64,000 nt of DNA from assembly GCA_963841915.1 (NCBI GenBank), contig CAWJEN010000003.1, positions 1-64,000 on the forward strand, given 5' to 3'. This document shows, one piece after another, positions 21,001 through 27,000 of the stretch. Made by a program: the position numbers. Positions within the stretch are counted from its first letter, which is position 1. Every line of letters begins with the position of its first letter. The DNA comes from an uncultured Planctomycetota bacterium. Its GTDB lineage: Bacteria > Planctomycetota > Phycisphaerae > Tepidisphaerales > Tepidisphaeraceae.

Positions 21001-24000
21001 GGCCGGCGACGCGTGGGCTGCGAAGCGACAGCATTGCCGTTGCCAACAGCAACGCACTGGCCCCTGCGGCAGGCATGAGCAGCCGTTCGCTCGTTAGATG
21101 TGCAAATGACGACGCCGTCTCTGCCGGGGCTGCTGCGGTCAGCGTTATCATCATCGGGCCGATGACGGTTGCCTGCAGCAGCATGAGCAGTCCGCAGTGC
21201 ATGAGCCGCTTGGACATTCGCTTGGCCGCCGCAACGTCTGCCAGGGCCGCCCGAAGCGGCTCGCCAGGTGCATAGCGGGCCCAATCTGCCGTGCCGTCCA
21301 ACGCAGCGGCGAGAAGGTGACGGTGACTGGCGGTCTCAAAAGCTTGGGCCTTCACATCCATATGTGAACTGTGCCACACTTATGGAAATCAGGCGGTGCT
21401 TTTTCAAGTCCGATAGTCGTTCAGGCCACCAACTTGCCGCGAACGATGGTCACCGCACGACCGCCCAGGTGGACGCGGTCGCCCCGAAGCACGCACCGCA
21501 AGCTGCCGCCACGGGGGCTGGCTTGGCGGCAATGGATGGTCTCACCGTCGCCCCGGCCCAACTCTCGGGCGAAATACGGAGCAACCGTGCAGTGGGCACT
21601 ACCCGTTACTGGATCTTCATCAATGCCGTACGCCGGGTAGAAGCATCGGCTGACGACGTCTGCCTCACCATCGTCGCGTGCGCTGAGGATCACACCGCGG
21701 GCATGGCTGCCGCGAGTCAGTTCATCGAGTCGGCGAAACTCGGGCCGAGCCTGTCGGACGGCATCTGCGTCGGGCAGCTCGATGAAGTAGTCGAAGTAGT
21801 CATTGTCGCTCCCGTCGTCGACGCCGTCCGGCGGTCGGCTGCGACCCGTGAAGCTGAACGGCCCGCAATTGACCGCCGACAACATGCCGTCCGGTAGGGC
21901 CGTTCCCACGGGCGGCGTTGCGGGAAGATCGAGCCAGAAACCCTTCCAATCAGCGTCCGGCGCGGCACGCAGCACGCCCGAGCGTGTCTCGAACGACAAC
22001 GGTTCGTGCAAGCTCACACGACCCGCGTCGTACAACGCGTGTGCGGCAGCAAGCGTCGCATGGCCGCACAGGTCCACCTCGCGCTCCGGCGTAAACCAGC
22101 GTAAGGCAAAGGTACCCGTCGCCTCGGTCGGCAGGGTCACAAAGGCGGTCTCCGACAAATTCATCTCGCCGGCAACAGCCAGCAGCAGTGTGTCCGACGG
22201 CTCGTCGTCTGGCTCGAGCAGCACGACGGCCGCCGGATTGCCCGAGTAGGGCTGATCGGCAAAGGCGTCGACGATAAAGAGCGGGCGATTCATGATGTGC
22301 TGACGCCGGGCAGGGTATCGACCTGCACGACCATTCGCTGATCCTGACGTATAAACCGACACCTGACGCCGACAGCGCGACTCGCGGCCTCTGCAATTTG
22401 CGAGAGGCGGTCGTCGCTCCCGGCCACCGTGATGAACCTGCCGCCGCACGCCAACGCCATCGGGACGATCAATCGGCGTGCGAGTCGTCGCTGCACCGCC
22501 ACGCCCGCGTCGATCCAGCCGGCTGTACGGTTGGCCGCCGCTTCGGCGACCGCGGCTGGAGAATCACCCGGCCGCGCGACCTGCGTGAAGACCGCCTCAC
22601 CATCGGTGCAGATCGCCCGGACCGTCACCGCGTTCCCCTCGCCGGTCGCATCTTCGGCCTCGCGAACCGTTACCGCCGGAAGCGGCCAGCCCGTCGTCCG
22701 CAATTGCTGTCGCAGGGCACGCAACTGCTCGCTGGCCACGTCAAATGGCACACGCGGCGTCACCACGACTTCGCACCTAGCCGACACCAGGCGACCCGCA
22801 TGCACCCACGACAGGGCCGGCCGCGACGCCACATCAACAGGCCGTACGTGCACAGAAATTTTGCCGTTGTCGCTCGATGTAAAGCCTGTTTGCGAGAGAT
22901 AGAACCCGACATCAAAGCCCAGCCGCCGAAGCGCCGGTTGGAGCGCGTGCCGGTAAAACGGAAACGACGCCGCCGTCGCGTCGTGCGTGACACCAACGAT
23001 GTCGAGCTGAAGCCGTCGCTTCGTGGTGAGCAGCAGCGGGAGCAGTGCGTCGATAACGTTGCCGCACGCGACGTTCGGCAATGCTTCCAGCAGGACGGTG
23101 GCCGTTTCGGGTCGGTCCGCAGCCAATGCATCGCTCACCCGCCTGGCCGCGGCAAAGAGCTTGGCCGCCCGCGCCTTGTCGTCATCCAGGCTCAACAGCG
23201 CGACCGTCAGATCGCGACCGGCTGCAAGTTGCTGGACGTCCGACACAGACATGCCAACAGGATAAGCAACCGGCCGGCCCGACGCATCAGCCTGCTGCCG
23301 TCTCGTTGTCGTGGAGCAGGTGGTACTCGTAGCCGTCGATGAGCGCCTCCCAGGAGGCGTTGATGACGTTTTCGTCGACGCCGACAGTGCCGAAGTAATG
23401 GGCGTTGCCCTCAGCATCATGGCGTCGGAACTCGATGACGACGCGCACCTTAGCCGCAGTCGCCGCGGCGGAGTTGACGACGCGCACCTTGTAATCGACG
23501 AGCTGCACGTCGTCGATGATCGGGTAGTGGGGCGACAACGCCTTGCGAAGCGCCGCGTCGAGGGCGTCGACCGGGCCGTCACCTTCGGCCACAGTGTGCT
23601 CTGCGGTGCCGTCGACGGTCAGCTTGCACGTCGCCTCTGCGGTCGATTTGGCCTCGTCCCCGCCGCGGAGGATGACGCAGCGGTAGTGGTCTAATTCGAA
23701 GTAGTCTTTCCTTTTGCCGATCTCGCGGCGGAACAGCAGCTCGAAACTTGCCTCTGCCGCCTCGAAGACAAAGCCCTCGTTCTCCAGGTCTTGCACACGC
23801 GTCAGCACACGGCGTTGCAACTCGCGGTCACCTTCGACACCGAACTGGCGGCCGACCTTCTCGGCGATGTTGCTCGCGCCGCTGAGCTCGCTGACGAGGA
23901 CGCGGCGGGCGTTACCGACGAGGGCCGGATCGATGTGCTCGTACGTGCCGGCATGCTTGCGGATGGCGTGGACGTGCATGCCGCCTTTGTGGGCGAAAGC

Positions 24001-27000
24001 CGACGGCCCGACGTACGGCTGGCCGGGCCGCAGGTTCATGTTGGCTGTCTCGTAGACGAATCGGCTGACATCCGTCAGCTTACCGAGGCCGCCGTCTGTC
24101 AGTGCTTCGTACGCACCGTCGTACTTGAGCAGGAGCGAGGCAACGAGCGGCAACAGGTCCATGTTGCCGCACCGCTCACCAACGCCGTTGATGGTGCCCT
24201 GGACCTGCGTCGCGCCCGCTTCGACGGCGGCAAGTGCGTTGGCAAGGGCAACGCCTCCGTCGTCGTGCGTGTGGATACCGACGCCGACGTGTTTCGGCAT
24301 CATCTTGCGTGCCCGACGCGTTGCCTCGGCGACCAGCGTGGGCAGCGTGCCGCCGTTGGTGTCGCACAAGCAGACAACCTTTGCCCCCGCATCGGCGGCG
24401 GCTTGGAGCGTCGACAGCGAGTGCTCGGCGTCCTCGGCAAAGGCGTCGAAGAAGTGCTCTGCGTCGTAGATGACATCGCGACCCCTCTCGGCGATGTGCC
24501 CGACCGTGTCGGCGATCATGTCCCGGTTCTCCGACGCCTCCACGCCCAGCACGGTCTCGAGCTGGAACCGACTGCTCTTGCCGACGATCGTGACGATCGG
24601 CGTCTCGGCCGACAGCAGCGAGGTAGTGCCCGGATCGTCGGTCACCTTCGTGCCGCGACGCCTCGTCATGCCAAAGGCGGCAATGCGGGCGTGCTTGAGC
24701 CCCAGCGTCTTGACCTCGTCGAAGAAGGCAGCGTCCTTCGGATTCGACTGCGGAAAGCCACCCTCGATGGCATCGACGCCAAGGTCGTCGAGCTTTTCGG
24801 CGACGGCTAGCTTGTCGTGCAGGCTGAGGTTGAAGCCCTCGCCCTGCGTGCCGTCGCGCAGCGTGGTGTCGTAGATGTTGATGCGCGTGGGCATTGGTCG
24901 TGGTGGAGCAGAAACAATGAACGCCCCGCCGGATCGGGCGGGGCGTCTGGTTGATCGTGATTCGATGCCGAAGACTGCCTCACCCGTCGCGGGCGATGTC
25001 AATGGAAGCGTCAATGAAGATCGCGGGAGCGGCGGTCAAGGCAGGCGACGTTACAGCGGCAGAGGCGTCAACGTCAATGCTGACGGGCGAACTGCCCATT
25101 CCGAGGAACGGCAGCGCCAGGACCGACGGCACGATCGCCATCGTGAAGGTCACCGCGAGAAACTTCAACGAGGACTTGGCGTCGCGAGACATGTGAGTGT
25201 TATCGGTCGAGGGCGGCTCGTGGCTGCAGCGGCTTGGCCCAGCGATACGCGGTAGCGGCCCGGGCGGTTCACGCCGTCACGCCACGGGGCAGGATGCCGC
25301 GCCCAGCAGCGTCAAGCCGAGCTGTGCCAACACTGCCATGAGCGCCGCCGGCACCGCGCCGAGCAGGAGCCAGACGTTGTCGTTGAGCCGGATGCCCTTG
25401 AAGATCGGGTCGCCGTACCCGCCCGCGGCGACGAACGCACCCAACGTCGCAAAGCCGATGGCGATGACCGTGCTCGTTTTGATGCCCGTCAGGATCGACG
25501 GCATGGCCAACGGCAGCTCGACGCGGAGCAGCCGCTTCCACGGCGACAGGCTGATGGCGTCGGCCGACTCGATGAGCGCCCGCGGGATGCCGAGCAGGCC
25601 CGCCTGCGTGTTGGCGACGATCGGCAGGAGCAGGTAGAGGAACAATGCGATGACGGTGGGCCAGAAGCCGATCGCGGTCAGGCCCAGCAACGCCAGCAGC
25701 GGAATCATGAACGCCAGCAACGCCAGCGACGGGATCGTCTGAAGGATCCCGACAAACGGCAGCACAAGGCGGCCGACCATGCGATCCTTCGCCGCCCAAA
25801 GCCCCAACGGCACCCCGACAAGCACCGCGGCAACGACGCTCGTCAGCACCAGGCCGAGGTGTTCGAGCGTCGCCTTCCACAAGCTGTCGCGGCGGTCCCA
25901 GGCGACCTGCCACCACGGCCGCGTTTCTTCAACCCGGTCGATGTCGGTGCCTTCGTAGGCGGCCGAGAGAAGCGCCCGCGCCACCTCGGCCGGTGGCCGC
26001 TTGTCGATCGCCGCGAGCTTATTGGCCGCGATCATCATCGGGGCCGGGATCATCCCTTCGAGAGACCGCCACGCAGCGACGACATCAGGCCGCCGCGTCG
26101 CAAGATCGGCACGGAACAGGATGACGCAGTCGTACCGCGGGAAAAAGGCCTCGTCGTCCGCGAGGCTGCGCAGGTTGTACGCGCTGATCTCGGCATCGGT
26201 GCCGTAGAGGTCGGTAACGTCTGCTTCGTCACTCGACAGGGCACGGAAGGCCAAGGAATGCTCGATGCCGCGGACGTCTGCCTGCGGTAGGTTGTAAAAC
26301 GCCCGCAGGCCAGGCCAGCCGTCGCTGCGGTCCATCCACTCGTTGCTGAAGCGCAGTCGAAGGTCAGGATGGTCGCGGAGGTCGCTGATCGTCGAGATGC
26401 CCAGTTCAGCCGCCTGCGCTTCTGGCATGCCGATGACGTAGCCGTTGTTGAAGCCGAGCGACGCGGACATGAAAATGCCGCGCCGCCGAAGCGAGCGGCG
26501 GAGCTCATCAAGATCCTGTAGATCCTCATTTGCCAGAAGTTCCCGGAGCAGGGTGCCGGTGTATTCGGGGTAGGCGTCGATCGCGCCTGCTTCGAGTGCC
26601 GCGATGAGCAAACCGCTGCCGCCCATTTCTGCCTTGTGCTCTGCGTCGACGCCTGCGTCACGGGCCAAAGCCGTAAGTGTTTCACCGAGGACGACGCTCT
26701 CGGTAAAGCCTTTGCTGCCGACGATAACCGGATCGTCAGGCCCTTTGGCAGCGGTCAGCGACACCAGCGTCAAGACGGCAACAACGAAAGACCGTGTCAC
26801 GATTGACAGATGGAAGCGTTGACCGGACATGCTCGACGTACTTGATAAAGAGCGGGCGAAACTCACGCGGCGTGGCCCCGCTGGGCGGTGACGAACTTTT
26901 CGACAAATGGGTCACTCGTGTCACGGGTGATGGCGTCCATCGATCCCTTGGCCACGACACGGCCGTCCCGCATGAGCGCGACCTCGTCGCCGAAATAGCC

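Follow-up and report, generated by a model that had tools for sequence, protein, structure and literature searches.

The stretch of DNA analysed (the window) covers 64,000 nucleotides at the start of a contig from an uncultured member of the Tepidisphaeraceae (Planctomycetota). The regulated gene, cimA, is found on the reverse strand at 23287..24894, with an ATG start codon at 24894, and encodes a protein of 535 amino acids, the enzyme at the entry of the citramalate route to isoleucine. The protein is classified as a citramalate synthase by TIGR00977 (626.7 bits, curated cut-off 450), and this bears out the gene assignment of a preliminary description of the locus. All leuA models score under their cut-offs on it, and leuA is a separate gene on contig C5. 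A threonine dehydratase above the TIGR01127 cut-off is encoded by 49 of the 73 family genomes, the one under study (G000) included, and the idea that cimA provides the sole route to isoleucine was therefore rejected.

A short open reading frame of 19 codons lies upstream of cimA on the same strand (24980..25039). It runs from a TTG at 25039 to a TGA at 24980 and contains four isoleucine codons (ATC at codon 7, ATT at codons 9 and 13, ATC at codon 15), in agreement with the isoleucine-rich leader first described. The box TAACGT (25053-25048) had been placed 7 nt before the TTG; the spacing in the sequence is 8 nt. With TTGACG (25077-25072) and a spacer of 18 nt it makes up a degenerate candidate promoter of the sigma-70 type (25048..25077, reverse strand). 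A generic promoter scan of the locus called no promoter, and no -10-like box is seen in the sequence directly before the ATG of cimA. Scored with a profile of the family elements, the promoter-plus-start block reaches 16.2 (held-out family median 28.3), a value attained by none of 4000 random windows (maximum 13.8). The end of the leader scores -11.7 (held-out median 22.6), and 319 of 4000 random windows score as high. The copy is atypical also in its start codon, as TTG is found in only two of 89 family leaders, and its -10 box is weak.

Folding places an intrinsic terminator (3:4) between the leader and cimA (24910..24947, reverse strand), with an 11-bp GC stem (24947-24920), a loop of 6 nt and an interrupted T tail. 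The hairpin has a free energy of -24.2 kcal/mol (z -4.84), which none of 200 shuffles equalled. The GC-rich hairpin and T-rich tail reported earlier are thus present, although the tail is not an unbroken T run. The antiterminator pairing, left unmodelled in the preliminary description, has now been computed. A 13-bp antiterminator (2:3; 24935..24986, reverse strand; -24.0 kcal/mol) is predicted, in which 24986-24972, containing the last codon and stop codon of the leader, pairs with the 5' arm of the terminator at 24948-24935. The arm pairs better with its own terminator arm (-20.1 kcal/mol) than with the family consensus arm (-12.2 kcal/mol). A putative protector or pause hairpin (1:2; 24980..24996, reverse strand) with a 7-bp stem starts within the last isoleucine codon and sequesters the 5' arm of the antiterminator. 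At equilibrium the terminator has a probability of 0.98 in every modelled state, so that the switch in this genome would need to be kinetic. An Rfam scan of the locus gave eight weak matches, all far below the gathering score and none at E <0.3; the Thr, Leu, Trp, His and Phe leaders of Rfam did not match.

The leader is in frame with, and shares its stop codon with, a 70-codon ORF (24980..25192, reverse strand) which had been dismissed as a miscall. This was only half right. The N-terminus resembles a signal peptide, and residues 9-70 align with residues 5-68 of a protein of clade member G024 (39% identity, E 8e-7, two one-residue gaps) that has a cupredoxin domain (PF13473). The ORF is the only match to this cupredoxin in the genome (genome-wide E 0.00125), and its first approximately 33 codons are kept as ORFs of 34-36 codons before cimA in G100, G101 and G102. 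It is a real gene stump, left from the neighbouring gene for a secreted cupredoxin-domain protein, and it ends at the leader stop and could itself act as a leader. Homologue searches with the 70-residue sequence gave nothing useful, the one weak match being a protein of 584 amino acids. The motif CCGATA (25201..25206, reverse strand), 8 nt ahead of the start codon (ATG) of this ORF and common to G100-G102, is a candidate -10 box for an alternative sigma factor, presumably comparable to a sigma-28 box; genome-wide, ATG is enriched 8-11 nt after CCGATA.

A terminator with a homologous arm is found in 98 of 112 cimA upstream regions of the family. Together with an isoleucine-rich frame it is found in 97 of the 112 when at least two isoleucines are asked for and in 90 with at least three, counted over the last 14 codons; as the stop codon was chosen to maximise isoleucine, these counts are inflated. 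An isoleucine-rich ORF had been reported for 26 of 30 loci; the conservation holds, while the 30 best cimA loci, which may not be the same ones, give the element in 24 and at least three isoleucines in 12 codons in 21. Leaders of 18-19 codons make up 68 of 88, and isoleucine accounts for 24% of the residues in these 88 leaders compared to 4.4% genome-wide, with 1.5% valine and 3.5% leucine. ATT is used for 245 of 376 isoleucine codons in the leaders and for 68 of 683 in cimA. A -35/-10 promoter is found just before an in-frame start in 89 family loci, 6-11 nt away in 86 of them, and the start codon is ATG in 83. Judged by this spacing, the family leaders are probably near-leaderless.

A search of GTDB with an RNA-only pattern, which contained no isoleucine codons and thus avoids the stop-choice bias but was itself derived from cimA loci, gave 105 sites: 89 before cimA, 14 before ileS and two unclassified. 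At least three isoleucines precede TAG in 99 of them. A metagenome scan with cimA found an isoleucine-rich frame with a terminator in 22 of 77 loci. The 2:3 pairing covaries, both sides changing together in other families, in G000 and in G099, and the element is found behind unrelated or divergent upstream genes. The leader is absent from five other members of the G000 clade (G100-G103 and G024). Within the family, the element occurs at four of 25 ileS loci; these four belong to genus g71 and G000 is not among them, and family-wide sharing of the attenuator by ileS was consequently rejected. The copying to ileS in one genus does indicate that the RNA module moves as a unit. In G000, ileS is an open frame of 969 codons that the TIGR00392 search missed.

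When the family leaders are folded, 86 of 89 have the stop-codon window as the best partner of the terminator 5' arm. If a ribosome occupies the stop codon, 2:3 is computed to form in none of the 89, while with a ribosome stalled at the last isoleucine codon at least 5 bp of 2:3 would form before the 3' arm emerges in 80. At equilibrium a stall lowers the terminator to less than 0.5 in no more than 45 of 89 leaders (39 with a longer footprint), meaning that the terminator prevails despite the stall in about half of the family loci. A 1:2-like hairpin of at least four expected pairs (median -8.4 kcal/mol) is found in 86 of 89, but as 2:3 outcompetes it and forms in 72 of 89 ribosome-free partial transcripts, 1:2 seems to be a weak protector. 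The computed antiterminator thus excludes the terminator; a ribosome standing at the stop hides it, whereas one standing at the control codons does not, and the upstream ORF is rich in codons for the end product and is separated from the gene by an intrinsic terminator.

On the basis of sequence, conservation, covariation and computed structures, cimA is very likely controlled by a ribosome-mediated transcription attenuator sensing charged tRNA-Ile. The family promoter would start the transcript 0-4 nt ahead of the leader ATG, too close for a Shine-Dalgarno sequence to fit in between. When isoleucine is plentiful the ribosome would reach the stop codon and cover the 5' arm of the antiterminator; the terminator would then form and transcription stop before cimA. 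A ribosome stalled at isoleucine codons would instead cover segment 1 and leave segment 2 free, and segment 2 could therefore pair with the emerging 5' arm of the terminator, allowing RNA polymerase to read into cimA. All RNA parts of the switch are retained in G000, where the ribosomes could be supplied by the weak TTG start, by the 70-codon cupredoxin stump in the same reading frame, or by the two together. The attenuation proposed in the preliminary description is now, with the antiterminator and its covariation, well supported for the family, in which the element is almost certainly an isoleucine-sensing attenuator. Support is weaker for the G000 copy because of its degenerate promoter and start, the poor score of its leader end and the loss of the leader in G100-G103 and G024; this copy probably still works.

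Leaders for other amino acids are also found in this genome. A composition-blind scan of its 3.6 Mb for a promoter together with a short ORF and a terminator yielded two matches, the cimA leader and a threonine-rich leader before thrS. Such a leader with its terminator precedes thrS not only in G000 but also at 14 of 29 loci of the family, and thrS, which had served as a control for the isoleucine test, is thus not neutral. The leuA leader is rich in leucine, and that of ilvB in valine, leucine and isoleucine.

It is very improbable that the conserved element combines the ordinary terminator of the preceding gene with a gene for a small peptide, or with an RNA motif, that has another role (a trans-acting peptide, a protein-binding site or a riboswitch). 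In favour of this, the hairpin also stands after the cupredoxin gene of G024, where there is no leader, and the C-terminal leader residues PRxRG are conserved. However, the 1:2 and 2:3 pairings account for the conserved residues while the N-terminal half is free to vary, the element also stands behind unrelated or divergent genes and before ileS, at four loci of G000 the leader amino acid fits the gene that follows, and Rfam gave no match at E <0.3. For the G000 copy in particular, it is unlikely, though less so, that it is a decaying relic whose hairpin now serves as a leaky constitutive terminator, or as a read-through valve without a useful isoleucine response, for transcripts from the upstream ABC operon or the CCGATA promoter. 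The TTG start, the weak -10, the leader end unlike that of the family and the dominance of the terminator at equilibrium would all fit decay. The five clade members that lost the leader show, by eye, a -10-like box 6-9 nt before the ATG of cimA, and cimA may be dispensable in G000 since its threonine dehydratase is present. Against decay, the 13-bp antiterminator is kept with changes that match its own terminator arm, the 1:2 hairpin and four isoleucine codons are still in place, no -10-like box precedes cimA here, and cognate leaders are maintained before thrS, leuA and ilvB.

The metagenome scan with cimA found no close relative (best 64% identity), and the odds that the G000 leader was inherited or rebuilt from the stump are about even. 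It is quite possible, at somewhat under an even chance, that the leader consists of codons 52-70 of the cupredoxin stump rather than of the ancestral leader, the mechanism being the same with parts of other origin: one in-frame deletion would have brought the stump up against the last codon, stop and hairpins of the ancestral element, with the isoleucine codons gained afterwards. The stump aligns to the G024 cupredoxin, and G024 falls in the same 100/100 clade as G000. Codons 52-70 share 32 of 57 nt with G024 (shuffled codons give 20.3, and 13 of 20000 shuffles do as well) and codons 34-70 share 56 of 111 (none of 20000), although for residues 34-70 alone 65 of 5000 shuffles are as good. Against random coding segments the figures are 3/5000 for DNA (38-69) and 2/10000 for protein (41-69). 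The G000 alignment has a z of 5.9 to G024, compared to a best of 5.5 and a median of 2.0 to 88 family elements, and family elements reach at most 3.4 to G024; on the G024 segment, however, family leader frames reach 29 vs 32 and 22 vs 22. The four isoleucines face Thr, Asn, Val and Val in G024, where neutral simulations give at least four isoleucines in 0.05-0.7% of runs, and both TTGAC motifs are one base away from G024 coding DNA. On the other side, the promoter-plus-start block, which has the spacing and length of the family, scores 16.2 and the G024 segment -9.8; the former is above all 4000 random windows, and an origin from the stump requires the block to be due to chance or newly selected. 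A cupredoxin profile built without G024 gives G000 -19.9, equalled by 12 of 88 family leaders, the nearly invariant cupredoxin Pro and Gly are Asp in G000, and the comparison is based on one sister genome. It may tentatively be suggested that a deletion took most of the cupredoxin gene with the ancestral promoter and leader and left the first 70 codons of the gene joined, in the same reading frame, to the former stop and hairpins. The stump would then have gained isoleucine codons just ahead of the stop, and perhaps also a new promoter and a TTG start out of coding DNA.

The mechanism itself is a textbook one, and it is the target gene that is new. The enterobacterial trpL, thrL, ilvL, leuL and pheM-pheST attenuators use the same 1:2, 2:3, 3:4 design, read by a stalled ribosome, and pheM-pheST is a precedent for a synthetase target such as ileS. 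The enterobacterial leaders differ from the probably near-leaderless cimA element in having a Shine-Dalgarno start, and ilvL and thrL are multivalent. E. coli is not known to carry cimA.

According to the available text of the sources, ilvBNC of Corynebacterium glutamicum has a three-hairpin attenuator in which the start of translation lies about one nucleotide away from that of the transcript (PMC11857589), and ilvB1NC of M. tuberculosis has a uORF attenuator (PMC13236596). As far as described there, these share with the cimA element a short uORF rich in branched-chain codons, an anti-antiterminator (putative for cimA), an antiterminator and an intrinsic terminator, and also, by computation for cimA, the masking of the antiterminator by a ribosome at the stop (PMC11857589; PMC13236596). 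The cimA element differs in its target, its almost pure isoleucine sensor and its phylum, sequence homology having been checked by the blank Rfam scan alone. In the part of the work on Streptomyces lividans that was available, leaderless leader peptides are listed as ilvL, leuL1/2, trpL and thrL before thrS (PMC8079986). The G000 set of cimA, thrS, leuA and ilvB follows the same logic, with short, putatively leaderless ORFs ahead of genes for biosynthesis and for an aminoacyl-tRNA synthetase. That list has no leader for cimA or ileS (PMC8079986). Actinobacterial ileS is described as controlled by a T-box (PMC1262725, in part). Literature searches turned up no account of a leader before cimA or of an attenuator in planctomycetes.

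The element adds the citramalate route and the phylum Planctomycetota to the range of leader-peptide attenuation, and gives independent support for a role of planctomycete TIGR00977 proteins in isoleucine synthesis. With its near-pure isoleucine sensor, well-resolved covarying hairpins and about 100 genomes, it would allow leaderless attenuation to be tested cleanly. In the G000 clade the element has been lost several times, copied to ileS and, in G000, fused to a gene stump. How leader peptides arise has been raised as an open possibility, in the available text of PMC2965389, and a G000 leader made of stump codons would, if true, bear directly on this. A rebuilt attenuator would then be a protein-coding remnant caught in the act of becoming an amino-acid sensor.

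cimA was detected in 131 of the 141 Tepidisphaeraceae genomes. One unpublished genome, G062, enters the tallies as a single unit, and nothing else is based on it. Upstream regions were compared for 112 cimA genes. These comprise the 30 top-scoring loci, 80 regions extracted by coordinate from a further set of about 100 matches, and two more; matches located at the edge of a contig, and the majority of incomplete cimA genes, were left out. A terminator is found in 98 of the 112 regions, and in 97 a frame with at least two Ile in its last 14 codons ends 24-43 nt 5' of the terminator. 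At least three Ile in the last 14 codons are found in 90 regions, the count being based on the stop codon giving the most Ile. Among the 30 best loci the element is present in 24, and 21 have at least three Ile. Ile accounts for 24% of the residues in the family leaders, Val for 1.5% and Leu for 3.5%; ATT makes up 245 of the 376 leader Ile codons, compared to 68 of 683 in cimA.

At 89 family loci a TTGAC-16/18-TAnnnT promoter lies 5' of an in-frame start codon, which is ATG in 83. The distance from promoter to start is 6-11 nt in 86 of the 89, suggesting that the leader ORFs are leaderless or nearly so. At 86 of these loci no other stretch within 230 nt pairs better with the terminator arm than the window around the stop codon. 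When the ribosome was imitated by masking the RNA, and the antiterminator was judged before the terminator 3' arm, an antiterminator of at least 5 bp was obtained at 80 of the 89 loci with a stalled ribosome, and at none with the ribosome at the stop codon. At equilibrium under stall the terminator falls below 0.5 at only 45 of the 89. Two copies are worn; L045 (genome G078) has lost the leader stop codon, while L091 (G083) has a weak terminator.

In the source genome, G000, the leader ORF as read from the sequence comprises 19 codons on the reverse strand, from a TTG at 25039 to a TGA at 24980; its codons 7, 9, 13, and 15 encode Ile. A candidate -10 box, TAACGT, is located 8 nt 5' of the TTG, and a candidate -35 box, TTGACG, 18 nt 5' of TAACGT. 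An 11-bp terminator hairpin with an interrupted T tail starts 32 nt 3' of the ORF (-24.2 kcal/mol, z -4.84 by computed folding), and is followed by the ATG of cimA at 24894. The cimA product scores 626.7 against a cut-off of 450 for the citramalate synthase profile, and the true leuA is found at a separate locus. No Rfam model matched the leader region at its gathering score.

The G000 antiterminator is seen when the RNA is folded without the terminator 3' arm. In this fold nucleotides 24986-24972, covering the last leader codon, the stop codon and 9 nt beyond, pair with the terminator 5' arm over 13 bp (-24.0 kcal/mol). A competing hairpin of 7 bp, which spans the last Ile codon through the stop, is able to sequester the antiterminator arm. 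In masked folds, before the 3' arm, the antiterminator is kept with the ribosome stalled at each Ile codon and gone with the ribosome at the stop codon. At full-length equilibrium the terminator dominates in every state (0.98), so on this modelling the G000 switch must be kinetic rather than an equilibrium one.

G000, G024, and G100-G103 form one clade (support 100/100), in which only G000 has the leader. A cupredoxin-domain gene (PF13473), found in 70 of the 141 genomes, is a common upstream neighbour. G024 has the complete cupredoxin gene and then a bare terminator, G100-G102 have an ORF of 34-36 codons immediately 5' of cimA, and G103 has neither of these 5' of cimA. At L003 (G100), L004 (G102), and L007 (G101) the stump of the cupredoxin signal peptide is kept as this conserved hydrophobic ORF, which could encode a novel small membrane protein. 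The sole match in G000 to the cupredoxin-domain gene is a 70-codon ORF (24980-25192, reverse strand) in frame with the leader. Its residues 9-70, leader included, align to residues 5-68 of the G024 cupredoxin, and since this alignment runs through the leader, the ORF is, judged from its sequence, a gene stump ending at the leader stop.

One account of the leader that remains is that the deletion stopped at the old promoter, leaving promoter and leader inherited but worn. The G000 promoter-plus-start block scores 16.2 on the family profile, above all 4000 random windows, and has the family spacing and length; the region also aligns to family elements without large gaps (10 sequences, some windows poorly placed). 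Alternatively, and in our estimate with somewhat less than an even chance, the deletion extended to the last codon of the old leader, and the present leader consists of cupredoxin DNA in which Ile codons have since arisen. Codons 52-70 are identical to G024 at 32 of 57 nt, which 13 of 20000 shuffles equal, the G000 leader end differs from that of the family (score -11.7), and four Ile by drift are improbable (0.05-0.7%). However, a cupredoxin profile built without G024 shows no signal, and one of 88 family leaders matches G024 equally well across 18 codons. On either account, ribosomes on the 70-codon ORF would cross the Ile codons and arrive at the same stop.

An ABC transporter of the osmoprotectant type (an ATPase plus a binding protein fused to a permease; 27759-25277, reverse strand) ends 85 nt 5' of the 70-codon ORF. 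Terminator prediction called none between the two, and the transporter transcript may read through into the attenuator. Directly 3' of cimA lies an ORF resembling RNA 3'-terminal phosphate cyclase, below cut-off (about 23200-22290, reverse strand), and then a PhzF-family gene.

Beyond the family, an Ile-rich frame with a terminator is found at 19 of 49 loci from the same class and at 7 of 20 from the rest of the phylum, and both pairing arms co-vary at such loci. In several non-family groups the leaders are longer and mix Val and Ala with the Ile; these may sense Val too. The longer leaders are seen at L123, L125, L127, L132, L240, L243, L245, L268, and L269, in other families of the class; several of the nine have a Shine-Dalgarno-like start and the Val/Ala/Ile mix. 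A GTDB search with the antiterminator and terminator letters only gave 105 sites, and the 80 listed titles are nearly all planctomycetes, many of them Tepidisphaeraceae or Phycisphaerae. The downstream gene is cimA at 89 sites, ileS at 14 and unclassified at two, the cimA enrichment, but not the ileS sites or the Ile content, being partly built into the pattern; 99 of the 105 have at least three Ile in the 14 codons before TAG. Within the family the ileS copy was found at four of 25 loci inspected (30 returned, minus one unpublished and four lacking the anchor motif), all in genus g71. These four (L302, L303, L308, L319), like the 14 GTDB sites, carry a near-identical cimA attenuator 5' of ileS, apparently a recent duplication within one genus.

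An amino-acid-blind scan of G000 for promoter, short ORF and terminator gave 189 promoter-like sites, of which two were positive, the cimA element and a Thr-rich leader 5' of thrS (C6:196024, reverse strand; GTG start, 15 codons, nine Thr, promoter 6 nt 5', antiterminator and terminator). A Thr-rich leader and terminator precede thrS at 14 of 29 family loci. By eye, a 22-codon leader with eight Leu is seen on C5 about 170-100 nt 5' of leuA at 813673 (L480); its end is able to pair with a downstream GC hairpin with a weak T tail. Likewise by eye, a short Val/Leu/Ile-rich frame lies 5' of ilvB at C5 882676 (L482), and the GC hairpin after it lacks a T tail; control here is possibly Rho-dependent or translational. 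Genome-wide, the distance from TAnnAT to the ATG of long frames peaks at 5-9 nt (38 cases at offset 6), and leaderless mRNAs therefore appear to be frequent in G000. CCGATA is found 8 nt 5' of an ATG at 25206-25201 and at 11 other G000 sites, an arrangement suggestive of leaderless transcription from promoters read by an alternative sigma factor; one of the genes presumably resembles flgD.

A 2010 survey by Lopatovskaya reportedly describes leuA attenuators in several phyla, Planctomycetes being absent, and some entries could be cimA. We take 'isopropylmalate/homocitrate synthase family' to be an older name for cimA-type genes. In the sections of the literature covered, the nearest known systems are actinobacterial ilvB attenuators (PMC11857589, PMC13236596), together with leader ORFs of the leaderless type in S. 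lividans (PMC8079986); actinobacterial ileS is under T-box control (PMC1262725). Planctomycete leader genes are handled only statistically in the covered parts of PMC4833913, and those of PMC3223726 contain nothing on cimA. The 'isopropylmalate' rows 1-31 of 40 in the PMC2965389 supplement include unannotated premature terminators 5' of several leuA-like genes, one of which is named 'isopropylmalate/homocitrate synthase family'; none of these rows is for Rhodopirellula. Literature searches, which covered mostly main texts, turned up neither a described cimA leader nor a described attenuator from planctomycetes, and the family cimA attenuator is apparently unpublished. CimA opens a threonine-independent route to isoleucine. 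The element preceding its gene in the Tepidisphaeraceae is very probably a real and widespread Ile-sensing attenuator of known mechanism, and it is fairly likely that the G000 copy works.
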